A stretch of DNA of 64,000 nucleotides from Eledone cirrhosa (lineage: Eukaryota). A model generated the notes under the pieces. It ran no database searches. It worked only from the letters and a program-made list of their open reading frames with translations, and was not told where the DNA came from. The position numbers were made by a program, and so were the translations under genes. Where the stretch lies: positions 147,188,001 through 147,252,000 of the forward strand of contig OZ024743.1 of assembly GCA_964016885.1 (NCBI GenBank). The letters run 5' to 3'. Within the stretch, counting starts at the first letter, position 1. The number at the start of each line of letters is the position of its first letter. This document shows, piece after piece, positions 31,233 through 64,000 of this stretch.

Positions 31233-31268
31233 TATATATATATATATATATATATATAGGAAGGTATA

Positions 31269-31309
31269 CGGTGCTGACGATAGCTAATAAGCTTGAAACT
31301 AGTACATAG
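31269..31309 (+). ncRNA. Family C hammerhead with degraded stem I
   Basis: CUGACGA-UAGCUAAUAAGCUU-GAAA-CUAG-UA intact; flanks CGGUG/CAUAG pair poorly. The element extends about 31258-31515. Confidence 0.7.
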
Positions 31310-31795
31310 TTCCTTTGTCAGTGTTGAACAAAAGGGCAACGATGGTTGCTAAACACTGTACAGCTTAATTCGGGATATTTGTTTACAAATAAACCGAGCA
31401 TTATAATAAAAGTTCCGTAAATCCATACGTACATATATATATGTGTGCATGTATGTCTATATATATACATACTACTGTACGTCTGTATACATATATGTAT
31501 GTACGTATACATACTTATATATATATATATATACAATATATTAACAAATGGAAACTATATTTATAAAACCATATTTATTTCATTATACATATTTCAAGGA
31601 CACCAAAGCAAATTATGGTGCGCTTTCATCAGATAAAATATATTATAGATCAGTTTTATAAACATACCCTTAATGACATACCCTTAAAAGAATGCGACCA
31701 TGTCTGTTTTACTCCAAACATTATTGTTGAATGCTTTATATCAGTTATAAAATTATTTGCTTGTTGTATCCCAACAAATTAAATATAACTTCTAC

Positions 31796-33838: not shown

Positions 33839-33900
<62 letters not shown>

Positions 33901-33908
<8 letters not shown>

Positions 33909-34124
33909 TAAAATAACAGATTAAAGTTTAAGCAAAGAATCGCTGCTTTCACCCTTAACGGGATCTTCTGATCAGAAGATCCCGTTAAGGGTGAAAGCAG
34001 CGATTCTTTGCTTAAACTTTAATCTGTTATTTTAATAAATATTTGCTCTACGGTTCTTATATATTTGATATATATTTTCCTTATCGAGCCCTCTTTGGAT
34101 TTTAGTCTTCAATTTTATTATTAT

Positions 34125-34130
<6 letters not shown>
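33901..34130 (+). repeat. 142-bp palindrome (33901-34042) plus tail; same family as 35587-35817
   Basis: Centre TTCTGA|TCAGAA at 33971/33972; 71-bp arms. Confidence 0.9.
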
Positions 34131-34197
<67 letters not shown>

Positions 34198-35544: not shown

Positions 35545-35586
<42 letters not shown>

Positions 35587-35590
<4 letters not shown>

Positions 35591-35817
35591 ATAATAATAA
35601 ATTTGAAGACTAAAATCCAAAGAGGGCTCGATAAGGATAAATATATATCAAATATATAAGAACCGTAGAGAAAATATTTATTAAAATAACAGATTAAAGT
35701 TTAAGCAAAGAATCGCTGCTTTCACCCTTAACGGGATCTTCTGAAACAGTTTCAGAAGATCCCGTTAAGGGTGAAAGCAGTGATTCTTTGCTTAAACTTT
35801 AATCTGTTATTTTAATA
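35587..35817 (-). repeat. Fold-back element (arms 35679-35817), inverted copy of 33901-34130
   Basis: Centre CTGAAAC-A-GTTTCAG at 35748; tail is the reverse complement of 34043-34130. Confidence 0.9.
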
Positions 35818-35887
35818 TATATATATATATATATATAAGTATGTATACTAAGAGTGAGAAATGAAATTTCGTTTCATTTTTTCCGTT

Positions 35888-35919
<32 letters not shown>

Positions 35920-42896: not shown

Positions 42897-43305
42897 CCTC
42901 TCTCACTCACACATTCAATCTATCTCAAACACTCACACACATATACAGATACACACATGCAGCAAGCGGCGTGCATACACAAACATGTTAATTTATTCAT
43001 AGGAAAAAAAAAAAAAGCATCAGTACAAAAACCTGAAAACCACTAGAAACTTTGGCTAGTATAAAACAGCGGTCTTTCATTTAGTAGCTCCATGAAGAGT
43101 ACTTGTATTTGACTAACAAGTATACCATATGACCACCCCGATAAACAACAGCGTCTTTGCAGACATTGAAAATCATTGTCTGTATTCAAGTAGAGAAATG
43201 GCACCTTACCAGAATAAATTGCACGGACGGAGGGAAGATTAATATATTTTAGTCTGGCATGAAGCATAACATCATATAGACATACAGATGTATATACATA
43301 TATAC

Positions 43306-43398
<93 letters not shown>

Positions 43399-43401
<3 letters not shown>

Positions 43402-44385
43402 GTGGTTACACAACAGTTAGTTCACCATACCGAGAACAATTGTTTCACCTTAGCGGATCCTCAGCTCGGAATGGGCATGGTTATAGGAACAGGAAGGACA
43501 ACCGTACGAACGCGCATGCGCAGAAACCCGGTCACTTCTCACAGGCAATACTAGAATGCGTGCGAGAGGTGTAAGGGAGATAACAGCAAAAGTCCGAAAA
43601 GTATTTAGTTGAAAAATAAAATTACAAAGAATCAGTCAGGAGCCTTGTTGTTATGCAATAGGTGTTTGGCGACGTGTGGACAACGTGTGAAAAATTCAAT
43701 CCTCGTGTTTAGGCAATCACTATTGCGTAATCTCTTTAGAATAGTTATACGTTCGTCAATACATAAGCCACACGTCGGATTTCCCCTTGCGTATGGCTTG
43801 GACTTAGTAATGGCTTTCCATTGAATGGAGTAGTCTATACTTAAGTCCTTGAGGGACCATACGTGGCTCGCGAGTTTCGTGGATGAACGTCTGTCCGGGT
43901 ATCTGAAGGTAGACTGGTGGTTCAGGAAACGTTCCTTAAATCGGCCCACATAGGATTTGACCTCCTGTGGTTCGTTTGGTCGGTTGGAAGTGACTACAGC
44001 TTCGTAAATTACAGCTGGTATGTTGCATTGCTTTTGAAGGGGGCAAGCTTCAGGCTTACGGCAAGAGCACCCTGGTGGGGTGTTGCTCCTAGGGCTGCTG
44101 GTGATGTGGGCCTTCATGTTCTTAGCGTAGGAGTATCCTAGTTTGACTTTGTGTCGGTTAAAGATGGAGCGGTATTTATGACCTATGGGAAAGTGTCTAC
44201 CTAAGAGGGCTAGAAATGTTGTTCCTACATTGGTTTTAACGTTGAGTGAGAAGGGAGGAGAGAACCATATAGTTTATCTATTGTTGCACTTACTTTTCCT
44301 AATGGTGTTGTTGCTAGTGGGAGAGTAAGTGATAGGTTGTGAGAAGCAGCTGTTAGCCAACGCCGTGTTATAGTAGGGTGCTGCT
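43399..44385 (-). mobile_element. 5'-truncated Naiad-type PLE (end of thumb, GIY-YIG, 3' pseudo-LTR)
   Basis: ORF 43632-44117: CSCRKPEACPL, VIYEA...SYVG, RFKERFLNH, CGLC...RCPH. Upstream AAPYYNTALANS...IWFSPPFSLNVKTNVG aligns to the 814-aa protein. Contains a stop and a small deletion; ends in (TA)n. Confidence 0.9.
43425..43474 (-). ncRNA. Minimal type I hammerhead in the 3' pseudo-LTR of the Naiad fragment
   Basis: CCAUUCCGAG-CUGAGGA-UCCGCUAAGGU-GAAA-CAAUUG-UU-CUCGGUAUGG; stem I CCGAG/CUCGG extended by CCAU/AUGG; palindromic stem III. Confidence 0.85.
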
Positions 44386-44623
44386 AAACACTGTACGGCT
44401 TAATTCGGGATGTTTGTTTACAAACACACCGAGCATTATAATAAATGTTCGGTAAATCCATACGTACATATATATATATATGTGTGCATGTATGTATATA
44501 TATACACACTACTGTACGTCTGTATACGTATGTATGTACTTTTATTTAAGTAAAAGCCGTACTAAGTGTGAGAAATTTCATTTCATTTCATTTTTTTCCG
44601 TTTATATATATATATATATATAT

Positions 44624-44666
<43 letters not shown>

Positions 44667-44686
44667 TGTGTGTGTGTGTGTGCGTT

Positions 44687-54382: not shown

Positions 54383-54647
54383 ATATATAAATATATCATA
54401 TATATATATATGATATATATATACATATATATATATATAAGTATGTATACGTACATAGATATATGTATACAGACGTACAGTAGTATGTATATATATATAC
54501 ATGCATGCACACATATATATATATGTACGTATGGATTCACAGAACATTTATTATAATGTTCGGTGTGTTTGTAAACAAACATCCCGAATTAAGCCGTACA
54601 GTGTCTAGCACCCATCGTTGATCATTTGTTCAACACTGACAAAGGAA

Positions 54648-54688
54648 CGCTGTACTAGTTTCAAGCTTATTAGCTATCGTCAGCAACG
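54648..54688 (-). ncRNA. Minimal type I hammerhead, family C
   Basis: CGUUG-CUGACGA-UAGCUAAUAAGCUU-GAAA-CUAG-UA-CAGCG. Confidence 0.85.
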
Positions 54689-55094
54689 TATACCTTCCTG
54701 CCAGATGATTGAAGATCTGAAAGTATATACTTTCCTTATGCATATTAACGGCTGAGCAGCCTAATTTGCATATCGAATGAGTTAATCGGCCGGGCGCACC
54801 GAAAATGATAAACGGAAAAATGAAACGAAATTTCATTTCTCACTCTTAGTACGGCTGTTACTTAAATATAAGTATGTATACGTACATACATATATGTATA
54901 CAGACGTACAGTAGTATGTATATATATATATATACATACATGCACATATATATATATATATATATATATATGTACGTATGGATTCACTGAACATTTATTA
55001 TAATGCTCGGTGCGTTTGTAAACAAACATCCCGAATTAAGCCGTACAGTGTCTAGCAACCATCGTTGCTCATTTGTTCAACACTGACAAAGGAA

Positions 55095-55135
55095 CGCTGT
55101 ACTAGTTTCAAGCTTATTAGCTATCGTCAGCAACG
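55095..55135 (-). ncRNA. Minimal type I hammerhead, family C, tandem copy
   Basis: Identical motif 447 bp from the 54648 copy. Confidence 0.85.
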
Positions 55136-55161
55136 TATACCATCCTGCCGTTTATATATAT

Positions 55162-55308
<147 letters not shown>

Positions 55309-55393: not shown

Positions 55394-55487
<94 letters not shown>

Positions 55488-55685
55488 GATAAATCTACCA
55501 AGAGTTTACGGTAGTGTCCAATCCGTATGAAGAACTCAATGTATTCCGGATATCATGGAAAGAAGAGATGTAATGAAAAATCACTTTCGGTGAAAGATAA
55601 ACGGTATACAGAGTCAAGATAAAATATTAAACAAATAATGAATAAAACAATGAAACAGTTCCTTATATTAAACAAAAAAAAAGTT

Positions 55686-55835
55686 CATTATTTAACGATC
55701 GTTTCTAGGATATATATGTGTTAGAATTGGTATGCATATTCAACAGATCTATGTACAAAATTATACAGAATTATACAAACTATCAAGATTAAATATACAT
55801 ACCAACACATATATACGCCGTCTTCAGAAATAATG
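55686..55835 (-). ncRNA. Type I hammerhead ribozyme with 115-nt stem II
   Basis: Minus strand: CAUUAUUU-CUGAAGA-[115-nt hairpin]-GAAA-CGAUCG-UU-AAAUAAUG; 8-bp stem I, palindromic stem III ACGAUCGU, GUU triplet. Confidence 0.85.
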
Positions 55836-56447
55836 AAATATATTTATTGATAATAACAACAATTCAAAATTTCAGGTCCGTTTGGGAACAAAATTGACCA
55901 ATGAAAATACAAAAGGTTTTATGCCGTTCGGTGTGTGTATATACATGTAACTACCCTTACACATATTTTACAAAAATGTATGCTCAACATGTATACGCAT
56001 ACCAAAAGGATGGATGCAAATACAAAATTTCAAGGTTAATGTCTCTGTAAGTTTATAATGCACAGATAAGATGCGTATAGACACATAAATATGAAATAAG
56101 TGTATACACATATTCTCATACTCACACATATCCGTACAATCACACACACGCGCGCGTATATGCATAAACATACACATAATTACGAACATACAAACACACA
56201 CACACCCCCACTCACATATATATATATGTGGATATCATAAGCACATGGATATTAATTCACTCACATAAACACTGCCACACACATTTAGATCAAGATACAG
56301 AAATTAGGTGGGAGGGGGGGAGAGGTCAGTATTCAACGGTTTGAGCAGACTGCTTATTATAGATGTATCTATAAACTAAGAAAATAAAAAATAAAAATTA
56401 AAAGGAAAGAAAAGAAAAAGAAAAGAAAAAAGAAATATATCAAGAAA

Positions 56448-56478
<31 letters not shown>

Positions 56479-56479
56479 C

Positions 56480-56512
<33 letters not shown>

Positions 56513-56614
56513 AAAACACACACATACATATACACACATCCACACTTAGAACATACATACACACACATATATAAACATATACATATACACACATACACAC
56601 ATATACACACATAC

Positions 56615-56687
<73 letters not shown>

Positions 56688-57231
56688 TACACACATAATC
56701 ACACATACTATATAGACACACATATATATACACACATACACGCACATATACATACACATACATACTTATATACATACAGATATACACATACATACCTATA
56801 TATACACACAAATACATACAGACATACATACATACATACACACAAATACTTACGCATCCATATATCGGTATATACATACAAACACCACTACACTCTCACA
56901 CAACTCAGACATACAAAGAAAAAGGTATATACCTATACACATATACATATACAAATAGAGATACATATACATATATATATATACATATATATACACATAC
57001 ATATATACATATACATATATATATATATATATACATACACATATACACACACATACATACATACACATACATACATGTACACACACATACATATACATAC
57101 ATACACACATACACACATACATATATAGTCATACACACACATACACCTACACGAACATACACATACACATATATAAAGATATATATACACACACACACAT
57201 ACACACACACAAATATATATAAAAAATAAAG

Positions 57232-59564: not shown

Positions 59565-62009
59565 TTAAATGTTTTTTTTTAGTTTATGATTACACGATAT
59601 AATTAATTCCTGTCGTTTATTTAATAGGATATCCTTAGATTTCATTATTTCAAATAGTTCTTGGGAACATAATCTACATTCATTTCTATTATTTTGATAA
59701 GGGGTGGCTCTTTTGAGCACACTCCAGGTCAAATCATATTCTATATTCTTATTTTTATAACTATTGATTTTTTCTGCTAGAGATGTTGTATTAGCCAGTG
59801 CGGCATTTTTAAAACTATGCTTGTGGGTATTAAACCTTGTCTTAAAATTGTTAGAGGTAGCTCCTATATATGAGCAAATAGAATCTTTAGTTTTAACATT
59901 ACATTTATAGACTATGTTGTTAACAAGACAATTCCCTTTTAATGGGCAGTTTGCTTTGTTTCTACAGTTACAACCTTTCGTTAATTCTGTATTTGAGGAG
60001 ATATTATGGTTAATTTGATGTACTGGTGGTATACTTATGGTTTTCTTACATTTATATGCATTATAGGCACTTATATTTTGTTTTATGTTATTTGTTGTAG
60101 AGTATGAGAATTTAACTGTAGACCTATTTAAGATTTGATGGTATTTGTGGTTTGGCGGGAAGTTTTTCTCTAGGATATAAAAAAATTTTTTAGCAATATT
60201 ATCCTTAATTTGTAAATTAAATGGAGCATTATACCAGGTAACCCGTCTATTACGGTTTCTATGTTGTTTATTATTTTTATTATTTTTATAGGTTGTATCG
60301 TGATGTTTACTAGGAGGATTAATGTTAATGATCTCACCACAACTATTTTTAGTTATATTTGTAGATTTAGGTGTTTTATCCTTTTTATTAGGAGTTTTAT
60401 TATTAATATTTATTAGAGTTGTATGATGAGTAGTTTTTTGAGAGTTACTATATTTTATATTAGAAGATTTGGTATTTTGGGGTATAGTGTGGGTGGCATT
60501 TAGGTGTGTACTTTTCATTTGGTGTTTGTTGGTAATATTAGGTTGTATGCTTTTAGTATTTTTAGTAGAAGGTATATATTCTAATCTATTTTTGTGGCCA
60601 CTTCTATCTAGAGCTTCGTTATAGAAGGTCGCATTTTTATCAAATACATCTTGGTTAGAAGAAAGGTTAGAAATTCTAAGTGATATATTATATGCAAGGT
60701 TTTTAAGGATAGATTTAGGGTGATTAGATTGTGAGTGTATGTAATGTAAGTTTTGGTTTGGTTTATGGTAAGGTTGGTAGATACCCGTAGCTAAATCTAA
60801 AGTTATATCTAGGAAATTTACTACTTTACTTGTTTTTTCAAAAGTAATATGAAGATTATAATAGTCTTTAAGGAAAGTTCTAATATGTTTTTTGTTTTTT
60901 TCAATTTCTGAAAGGCTAAGGTTGTTAGAAAGAAGAAGACAGTCATCACGATATAAACCACCTTTGAGGTGGGGAAAGGAGGCATTTATGTTGAAAAGGA
61001 GAAAGAGGCCCACAAGATCAGTAATTTGGGCGGAATCGCTTGAACCCATAGTAATATCAAATAGATTACTATATGTGTTTCTGGTCCAGTATTCATTCTG
61101 AAATTCAATAAGTGTTAGTCTAGCATGTGTAATAATATTAATGTCATCCAAAGTTAAGTTAGATCTATTTTTAGCAAATATCAATGCTTTGTTCAGGAGT
61201 ATAGGTGATATAGAAGAGTAGTAATTATCTATATCAAATTGTAGAAATGAAGCAGAAGATTTACATCTAATATTTTTAAACCAGTTAATTACCTGGGAGG
61301 TGTTTTCCCAGAGTGGTAAAATAACGTGTTTTCTTATTTGTGGGATGACTCTATCCAAAATTTTTTTGCTAATTATTCCAATATCTGATTTGGAGGGACA
61401 TATAAGTCTAATAGAAGGATTTGAGTTAAAGTTTGATTTATGATCCTTCAGGTTGAAGTGTGGTCTTTTCAATGCCAAAGGTTCAGTTCTATCTTCAATG
61501 TTTAGTTTTTTTACTATGTTGTGTGTTTTGTTGTTGATGTTGGTGAGTGACGCATTATTAGATTTTTTATAATTTTTTCTGAGTTCTTTATATATGAACT
61601 CATTATAATGTTCAATATCCATATGATACAAGTTACCAGTTTTGTCCGAGTGGACATGGATTTTTTTAGACTTTTTTAGGTCCAATAGGGTAGAATCAAG
61701 GTCCTTTTGAAAGACGGATTTATACTTTTTAAATTTGAGGTGTTTAATTAAATTAAAAAGGTCTTTCTCGAAGTCTTCAAGTAAAAAGTTGTGTGGTGGA
61801 TTCTTGTAAGTATTGAAATCATACATATATTTCCGATCTGCTTGTTTAGATTTTTTATCGAAGTGGTAGGCTCTCCATCTAACCCTTCTGATAAAATTAT
61901 TAGTTTTTTGAATCATAAGGAGTAAGAAGTCATCCTTAGAAGGTATTGGTATGTTTTTTAAAGAGGTTCCCAAATATTGTTTTTCCATTGTGATATGGAT
62001 GATGGACAA
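59565..62009 (-). CDS. Penelope-like retroelement polyprotein (RT + GIY-YIG endonuclease), Naiad-type, 814 aa
   Basis: Uninterrupted ORF with PLE RT motifs HSDKTGN, LKDHK, IRLICP, FLQFDIDNYYSSI, ITMGSSDS, LYRDD, VNFLDITL, YHKP, SNHP; linker CNCRNKANC (CxCx5C); GIY-YIG-like NIVYKC...SYIGAT...FKTRFNTH; C-terminal CRLC...SCNH. Start codon uncertain (ATG of MEKQY near 61988 is an alternative). Confidence 0.95.
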   Translation of the reverse strand: MSIIHITMEKQYLGTSLKNIPIPSKDDFLLLMIQKTNNFIRRVRWRAYHFDKKSKQADRKYMYDFNTYKNPPHNFLLEDFEKDLFNLIKHLKFKKYKSVFQKDLDSTLLDLKKSKKIHVHSDKTGNLYHMDIEHYNEFIYKELRKNYKKSNNASLTNINNKTHNIVKKLNIEDRTEPLALKRPHFNLKDHKSNFNSNPSIRLICPSKSDIGIISKKILDRVIPQIRKHVILPLWENTSQVINWFKNIRCKSSASFLQFDIDNYYSSISPILLNKALIFAKNRSNLTLDDINIITHARLTLIEFQNEYWTRNTYSNLFDITMGSSDSAQITDLVGLFLLFNINASFPHLKGGLYRDDCLLLSNNLSLSEIEKNKKHIRTFLKDYYNLHITFEKTSKVVNFLDITLDLATGIYQPYHKPNQNLHYIHSQSNHPKSILKNLAYNISLRISNLSSNQDVFDKNATFYNEALDRSGHKNRLEYIPSTKNTKSIQPNITNKHQMKSTHLNATHTIPQNTKSSNIKYSNSQKTTHHTTLININNKTPNKKDKTPKSTNITKNSCGEIININPPSKHHDTTYKNNKNNKQHRNRNRRVTWYNAPFNLQIKDNIAKKFFYILEKNFPPNHKYHQILNRSTVKFSYSTTNNIKQNISAYNAYKCKKTISIPPVHQINHNISSNTELTKGCNCRNKANCPLKGNCLVNNIVYKCNVKTKDSICSYIGATSNNFKTRFNTHKHSFKNAALANTTSLAEKINSYKNKNIEYDLTWSVLKRATPYQNNRNECRLCSQELFEIMKSKDILLNKRQELIISCNHKLKKNI

Positions 62010-62138
62010 TTGAAAGAGCTCAACTAAATGTATATGGGTTTATAAAATCATACATATATATGTATATACACAAATATAAAATTAATACACACATACAGTA
62101 CAAAAATACGAATATTTCCGTGAAAATAGGAGCAAAAT

Positions 62139-62713
62139 TATGTAGATAAATCTACCAAGAGTTTACGGTAGTGTCCAATCCGTATGAAGAACTCAATGTA
62201 TTCCGGATATCATGGAAAGAAGAGATGTAATGAAAAATCACTTTCGGTGAAAGATAAACGGTATACAGAGTCAAGATAAAATATTAAACAAATAATGAAT
62301 AAAACAATGAAACAGTTCCTTATATTAAACAAAAAAAAAGTTCATTATTTAACGATCGTTTCTAGGATATATATGTGTTAGAATTGGTATGCATATTCAA
62401 CAGATCTATGTACAAAATTATACAGAATTATACAAACTATCAAGATTAAATATACATACCAACACATATATACGCCGTCTTCAGAAATAATGAAATATAT
62501 TTATTGATAATAACAACAATTCAAAATTTCAGGTCCGTTTGGGAACAAAATTGACCAATGAAAATACAAAAGGTTTTATGCCGTTCGGTGTGTGTATATA
62601 CATGTAACTACCCTTACACATATTTTACAAAAATGTATGCTCAACATGTATACGCATACCAAAAGGATGGATGCAAATACAAAATTTCAAGGTTAATGTC
62701 TCTGTAAGTTTAT
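62139..62713 (-). repeat. Direct pseudo-LTR copy (575 bp) of 55482-56056
   Basis: Matches by eye from TATGTAGATAAATCTACC to TCTGTAAGTTTAT at a constant offset of 6657. Confidence 0.95.
62343..62492 (-). ncRNA. Second copy of the long-stem-II hammerhead, in the 5' pseudo-LTR
   Basis: Same sequence as 55686-55835. Confidence 0.85.
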
Positions 62714-63247
62714 TATATATATGTGTGTGTGTGTATGTGTGTGTGTGTATATATATCTTTATATATGTGTATGTGTATGTTCGTGTAGGTGTATGTGTGT
62801 GTATGACTATATATGTATGTGTGTATGTGTGTATGTATGTATATGTATGTGTGTGTACATGTATGTATGTGTATGTATGTATGTGTGTGTATATGTGTAT
62901 GTATATATATATATATATATGTATATGTATATATGTATGTGTATATATATGTATATATATATATGTATATGTATCTCTATTTGTATATGTATATGTGTAT
63001 AGGTATATACCTTTTTCTTTGTATGTCTGAGTTGTGTGAGAGTGTAGTGGTGTTTGTATGTATATACCGATATATGGATGCGTAAGTATTTGTGTGTATG
63101 TATGTATGTATGTCTGCATGTATTTGTGTGTATATATAGGTATGTATGTGTATATCTGTATGTATATAAGTATGTATGTGTATGTATATGTGCGTGTATG
63201 TGTGTATATATATGTGTGTCTATATAGTATGTGTGATTATGTGTGTA

Positions 63248-63316
<69 letters not shown>

Positions 63317-63418
63317 GTATGTGTGTATATGTGTGTATGTGTGTATATGTATATGTTTATATATGTGTGTGTATGTATGTTCTAAGTGTGGATGTGTGTA
63401 TATGTATGTGTGTGTTTT

Positions 63419-63453
<35 letters not shown>

Positions 63454-63458
63454 GTATG

Positions 63459-63489
<31 letters not shown>

Positions 63490-64000
63490 TTTCTTGATAT
63501 ATTTCTTTTTTCTTTTCTTTTTCTTTTCTTTCCTTTTAATTTTTATTTTTTATTTTCTTAGTTTATAGATACATCTATAATAAGCAGTCTGCCCAAACCG
63601 TTGAATACTGACCTCTCCCCCCCTCCCACCTAATTTCTGTATCTTGATCTAAATGTGTGTGGCAGTGTTTATGTGAGTGAATTAATATCCATGTGCTTAT
63701 GATATCCATATATATATATATGTGAGTGGGGGTGTGTGTGTGTTTGTATGTTCGTAATTATGTGTATGTTTATGCATATACGCGCGCGTGTGTGTGATTG
63801 TACGGATATGTGTGAGTATGAGAATATGTGTATACACTTATTTCATATTTATGTGTCTATACGCATCTTATCTGTGCATTATAAACTTACAGAGACATTA
63901 ACCTTGAAATTTTGTATTTGCATCCATCCTTTTGGTATGCGTATACATGTTGAGCATACATTTTTGTAAAATATGTGTAAGGGTAGTTACATGTATATAC
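62714..64000 (+). repeat. Inverted pseudo-LTR/3' UTR copy, truncated by the window edge
   Basis: Reverse complement of 55937-57220; the ORF track gives mirror peptides (55968-56201 minus equals 63736-63969 plus). Confidence 0.93.

Follow-up and report, generated by a model that had tools for sequence, protein, structure and literature searches.

The window analysed here is a 64,000-nt stretch of the Eledone cirrhosa assembly (contig OZ024743.1), and the coordinates below refer to it. A (TA)n tract is followed by a minus-strand Penelope-like element (PLE), named family N here (43399 to about 44384), a plus-strand piece of a second repeat, family C, which ends at 44604, then (TA)11 and (GT)n. 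The features are:

43291–43398, no strand: left target microsatellite, (TA)n-rich, adjoining the short 3′ end of family N
43399–44384, minus strand: family N, a 5′-truncated PLE assigned to the Hydra clade, positions 1563–2580 of the 2580-bp reference copy, with the end of the RT thumb, the linker, the C-terminal GIY-YIG endonuclease and the 3′ UTR
43442–43464, minus strand: predicted hammerhead core in the N 3′ UTR (CUGAGGA, stem II, GAAAC), without an Rfam match
43632–44273, minus strand: residual open frame of N, comprising the linker with CxCX5C and the endonuclease with CxxC and CxH
44380–44384, no strand: head-to-head junction, 0–5 nt common to both families, depending on the parental alleles
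44380–44604, plus strand: 5′-truncated piece of family C, positions 95–336 of the unit counted from the hammerhead start
44603–44682, no strand: right target, (TA)11 and then a (GT)n run

The PLE coding sequence AAPYYNTALANS (minus strand) stops at 44381–44384, and plus-strand C follows without an intervening (TA)n. The outer ends of both halves adjoin (TA)n. The join is thus 5′ to 5′, with the true 3′ ends facing outward. The N copy is decayed: a stop interrupts it near 44274, and a gap of 12 bp lies near 43943; the C piece starts about 40 nt past its predicted cleavage site and ends at the long 3′ end of its family. The first-pass annotation of this DNA had described a truncated PLE joined in inverted orientation to C, with no (TA)n between the halves and (TA)n at both outer ends, and this geometry is confirmed in the assembly. 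The TGCT overlap that it gave finds no support; the overlap, of 0 to 5 nt according to the parental alleles, is at most GCTGC (44380–44384). Among the 63 listed continuations of N copies, the longer junction allele is carried by five and TGCTGCT by none; GCTGC is present in 5–6 of the 18 closest other C copies.

A genome search with 44300–44460 gave 1321 candidates, and among the 40 scored the window alone covers both sides, 28 matching the left side only and 11 the right side only. In the assembly the left flank occurs once, and the flanks match public contigs without differences. No listed public contig or read, those of one RAD run included, bridges the junction, which therefore rests on the assembly; the runs searched are fragmentary. 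The search of the assembly, the public contigs and the RAD run found no empty allele or paralogue of the site. Private changes amount to about 2% in both halves (21/981 in N and 3/139 in C). Both values equal the family medians, so that the match in age is uninformative and without power.

Identity of the two halves

The left element had been labelled Naiad. On its motifs and on the alignment with its homologues, it is assigned to the Hydra clade. Longer N copies encode an RT followed by an endonuclease, with the motifs RWR and DKT (DKT in the L047 and L033 copies), the linker carries CSCRKPEAC (CxCX5C), and the endonuclease has CGLC (CxxC) and CPH (CxH) around the conserved E and N residues. 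The homologues carry RWK or RWR together with DKT, and the host of one named homologue is among those given for the Hydra clade. The N unit is 2580 bp, thus under 3 kb, with a single ORF, a tandem pLTR and a 64-bp tail. Its 3′ end and tail were established from tandem copies, and 25 + 67 segments terminate at the short 3′ end at (TA)n. N is a young family: identities of 99–100% were found for the 40 best matches to its 3′ end.

The features listed for the Hydra clade are a length below 3 kb, a C-terminal GIY-YIG, RW[KR], DKT, CxCX5C, CxxC with CxH, a hammerhead and a (TA)n target (Craig et al. 2021, PMC8557442). N agrees with that description in its short length, single ORF, C-terminal GIY-YIG, predicted hammerhead and (TA)n insertion, and also in its pLTR tandems, optional tail and inverted 5′-truncated copy. 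The inverted copy described there is of the same element, whereas here it derives from the RNA of another family. The Naiad label is contradicted by three properties: the endonuclease follows the RT thumb instead of being N-terminal, the motif is DKT and not DKA, and a hammerhead core is predicted by motif at 43464–43442 where a canonical hammerhead should be absent. A Neptune label was discarded in favour of Hydra on the clade definitions. Stem I and the palindromic stem III of the N hammerhead were identified by eye. Pfam gave no match on four Hydra proteins, those of N included, and the domain assignments therefore rest on motifs and on the alignment with homologues. Rfam matches to the window numbered 320, and the 150 of them that were listed include no hammerhead; searches of the two short stretches gave none either. 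The monomer folds were not better than shuffles (z −0.4, 0.0 and −1.5).

Two observations on related elements may be added. A second Hydra-type family is represented in the window by an 824-aa ORF (59565–62039, minus strand) with a low-complexity insert of about 100 residues between thumb and linker, and beside it lie near-identical (99%) duplications at 55482–57226 and 62139–64000, one direct and one inverted. At L041 and L176, about 0.8 Mb apart on C1, the same rearranged N structure suggests an inverted segmental duplication.

Family C is, as judged from sequence, an unrelated non-coding hammerhead repeat of retrozyme-like type, for which self-cleavage is predicted. Its unit is 434 bp (period 432–436 over six spacings), its GC content is 35.5%, its longest stop-free frame is 70 aa, and its arrays reach at least seven units. 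In these respects it agrees with the non-LTR retrozymes, whose tandem non-coding units measure 150–450 bp with GC under 45%. Each unit holds a type I hammerhead, in which the CUGA and GAAA core is invariant and 95.9% of cells are paired across 29 copies; in the same alignment one stem I pair covaries, shuffles gave 0/500 and slid controls 28–43%. Rfam did not match the C hammerhead, and the minimum free energy fold of the monomer differs from the ribozyme fold. At (TA)n, C ends at either of two fixed positions separated by 55 nt, and these 3′ ends together with the hammerhead set the sense of C at the junction as plus. It also forms inverted pairs with itself (50 segments).

C is not significantly similar to N; their best alignment covers 18 nt (E 0.08). 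This, with the N 3′ end and tail known from tandem copies, bears out the first-pass view that C is not N's own pLTR, and the view that the layout imitates the usual inverted pLTR with a foreign RNA holds. Nor do the 29 Hydra ORF ends examined outside N lead into C, although for four of them the reach did not extend to a (TA)n end, and C may still have a rare coding parent. By comparison, D, F, H1 and H6 each form the 3′ terminus of some other Hydra family.

C resembles the animal non-LTR retrozymes (Cervera and de la Pena 2020, PMC7229834; Li, Clavereau and Pollet 2026, 10.64898/2026.07.22.740005) in its 434-bp unit, 35% GC, non-coding tandem arrangement and type I hammerhead. PLEs have been proposed as the mobilising partner of such retrozymes. 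In these two studies, as far as the sections at hand describe it, the link between retrozymes and PLEs consists of co-occurrence and pLTR phylogeny; C, in contrast, shows the ends of a PLE (two 3′ ends and inverted pairs) and is physically joined to members of two Hydra families.

The window holds further copies of these repeats. A 50-bp 3′ stub of C (35846–35895) directly follows a D pair, another C copy (31258–31520) bears the hammerhead, and a tandem C copy (54432–55180) has a very short inverted 3′ end. D, the 3′ end of another Hydra family, has CAGAAGA in place of the CUGANGA core, and its inverted pairs at 33867–34170 and 35545–35847 are 94.7% alike and mutually inverted. About 140 hammerhead-like motifs occur in 800 kb (L251–L330), several of them Hydra family tails, and clusters of two or more such motifs number 31 across all loci examined.

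The 5′ junctions of family N

The survey covered 185 merged regions and 25 later loci, most of them picked because they matched N or C best. An even sample of 800 kb was taken as evenly spaced 10-kb stretches. Automated junction calling over all families was noisy from low-complexity matches, and N and C junctions were therefore curated by hand, at loci picked by best N match; about 40 further N places lie outside the count, and the counts are open to change. The outermost 5′ junctions of N number about 175. N/N inverted pairs account for about 79 of these (70, two of them redundant, plus nine from the later loci), while about 50 lie at a microsatellite and about 20 at unique or other DNA.

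In the N/N pairs the two arms share 1–5 nt at 42 of 70 junctions. The median divergence between arms is 3.8%, against 5.7% for random copies, with 15/40 in the lowest decile and 2/40 above the median. The arms are closer than random copies; therefore in most N/N pairs both arms derive from a single source or a single active subfamily, and mixed pairs are exceptional. In the even sample, the small hammerhead families formed 55 head-to-head joins within a family and two between families, both doubtful.

Mixed pairs recur nevertheless. The survey gave ten head-to-head joins of N with another hammerhead family besides that of the window. These eleven of about 175 junctions face outward and involve six partner families. 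Eight are direct joins: the window (C), L029, L037, L098, L137 (F), L163, L186 (D) and L404 (F). Three run through a 30–36-nt fold-back of N (L219 with D, L244 and L377 with F) and are also counted among the N/N pairs. The partner was traced to its family 3′ end at (TA)n in 10/11, the partner at L219 continuing past the 3′ end; L037 and L163 are the weaker calls.

Same-direction joins, in which a PLE or hammerhead family faces inward, number six (L044, L047, L177, L180, L226 and L402, the last with C). Non-PLE retroposons are outward partners at two loci, an RTE LINE at L043 and a second retroposon at L124. C itself meets a near full-length element of a different Hydra family, one that has D as its 3′ end, head-to-head at L291 in the even sample, and F-like pieces at L006 and L071.

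Several candidates were removed from the mixed head-to-head count. A microsatellite lies between the halves at L221, L120 and L184, and about four TA units remain at L130. The pieces at L206, L174 and L171 are too short or ambiguous in orientation, and L310 is ambiguous. The partner faces inward at L226, is non-PLE at L043 and L124, and is the element's own 3′ end at L267 and L308. Separately, N joins other Hydra families in the same direction at L044, L047 and L150 and opposed at L021.

Origin of the mixed pairs

We consider it likely that N and C were written in one event, in which each strand of a single (TA)n cut primed the copying of a different RNA and the two cDNAs were joined end to end. 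In such an event the PLE endonuclease would nick both strands of the (TA)n target, whose sequence is the same on either strand. One RT, or one subunit of a dimer, would prime on the Hydra RNA from one nick, and another RT on the C RNA from the opposite nick. Both cDNAs would stop early, and a few bases in common would serve to join their ends. The frequent N/N and C/C inverted pairs would arise in this way when both templates are of one kind. Support comes from the geometry, the fixed 3′ ends, an overlap like that of the N/N pairs and the recurrence of such joins. The fusion of C to a second Hydra family with a different 3′ end of its own (L291) adds to it. A shared PLE reaction is not the sole route, because an RTE LINE with its own enzyme lies head-to-head with N at L043, as does the retroposon at L124, and the geometry can thus arise without it.

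Similar chemistry is known elsewhere. The purified PLE protein Poseidon PAc nicks and extends both strands, uses two internal start sites, which give the tail, and is a predicted dimer (Frangieh et al. 2024, PMC11167929), like the reaction proposed here for Hydra; it belongs to a different clade, and the reactions described had one RNA species each. Head-to-head PLE repeats and the microhomology at their 5′ junctions are also the subject of the self-priming model of Arkhipova et al. (2013, PMC3846280), but one antisense template cannot yield two unrelated arms as in N/C. Between the PLE types studied in that work no cross-mobilisation was described. In L1 twin priming and synchronous insertions, two primed DNA ends are used and the cDNAs are joined by microcomplementarity, and two concurrent L1 RNAs can be joined in one bridge (10.1101/2024.08.27.596794). 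In twin priming as presented there a single RNA is copied with the help of an internal primer, and the two-RNA cases link two loci, whereas here each arm begins at a true 3′ initiation site and both apparently lie at a single target. By analogy, the two-RNA bridges of L1 are the nearest parallel to the N/C join.

The main competitor, which we regard as unlikely though not far-fetched, is two separate insertions: with one element already beside (TA)n, the other would have entered that run, and the intervening sequence would have been lost when the 5′ end of the newcomer annealed into its neighbour, or by later deletion. Stacked insertions do accumulate in (TA)n runs, about 50 N copies have the 5′ end directly at a microsatellite, and the N/RTE join at L043 and the RTE inside an F pair at L285 show that the route exists. 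In the even sample, hammerhead-family ends adjoining (TA)n were 174 3′ ends and 27 5′ ends (264 segments); with this excess, sequential insertion should favour same-direction over head-to-head joins (27:174), and the reverse was seen, 11 head-to-head against six. Later hammerhead elements rarely cut N 3′ ends (1 to 3 of 73). We built a null from the availability of 3′ and 5′ ends for a later N and from the cut N 3′ ends for a later partner. It expects 2.1 cases against ten observed without the window (p 0.002). The null is not rejected under more cautious counting: with the fold-back cases assigned to it, 3.6 are expected against seven observed (p 0.12), and with the five firmest direct cases only, 3.6 against five (p 0.31). 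The fold-backs resemble patches formed where an N cDNA end was free, such as the one at L402, a locus in which N must be the active end. On this reading the counting that gives p 0.002 is to be preferred. Under sequential insertion, moreover, the three fold-backs need deletions of 380–600 bp, each ending 30–36 bp short of the junction.

The other explanations fare worse. The first-pass annotation had considered template switching by the RT. From a plain switch one would expect a chimera whose halves run in the same direction and which has a single primed 3′ end, not two outward 3′ ends; a switch to the sense RNA gives the opposite orientation. A single priming would have to pass from the N RNA onto an antisense or double-stranded C transcript, which is very improbable. 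Antisense templates have been proposed for PLEs (PMC3846280), and switching seems to occur, as in some same-direction joins that lie in or at the partner's hammerhead; but the partner here ends exactly at the sense 3′ initiation site at (TA)n, which is unexpected from an antisense template. An artificial fusion of two repeats in the assembly has an even slighter chance. It draws on the lack of a bridging contig or read among those listed, a gap that proves nothing in fragmentary read runs. Against it stand the flanks, single-copy and identical to public contigs, the resemblance of the junction to other N junctions and the ten similar cases on other contigs.

The N/C join is a real case of a recurring mixed-arm variant of the known inverted structure of PLEs, and a handle on the mechanism, short of proof. 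That joint writing from two RNAs extends to PLE integration as a whole we put forward more tentatively. Integration may be a two-template reaction in which a Hydra RT-endonuclease dimer primes separate RNAs at the opposed nicks of a single (TA)n site, and about one in eight two-armed N insertions would then carry a foreign second arm from a retrozyme or another Hydra transcript. The mobilisation of C by PLEs in trans, suggested by the first-pass annotation, is supported in general; the attribution to family N specifically is not, as C has a fusion with another Hydra family as well (L291).

The origin of the head-to-head inverted ends of PLEs was named as an open question (PMC8557442, section 15). 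Mixed-family inverted pairs of PLEs were not described in the literature searched, mostly titles and the beginnings of abstracts of papers open without subscription. Mixed pairs can separate one template from two, which same-family pairs cannot. Mobilisation of retrozymes by PLEs has so far been proposed, and fusions of the N/C type bear on it. If the two-template reading is true, mixed pairs are direct footprints of retrozyme hitch-hiking, self-priming is ruled out as the sole source of PLE inverted repeats, and the joint insertion of two RNAs would help explain how PLEs insert. The thousands of young copies in this genome offer a countable test, and the RNAs are named for a two-RNA assay in vitro.

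Two minor observations concern the other joins. The same-direction junctions of N at L180 (3495–3600), L226 and L402 lie in or at the hammerhead of the partner, and at L180 the partner ends 1–2 nt past the predicted cleavage site, as if the RT had jumped onto a ribozyme-cut RNA end. The young RTE-type LINE (L285, L281 and L043) ends at TA and lies in or beside hammerhead elements.
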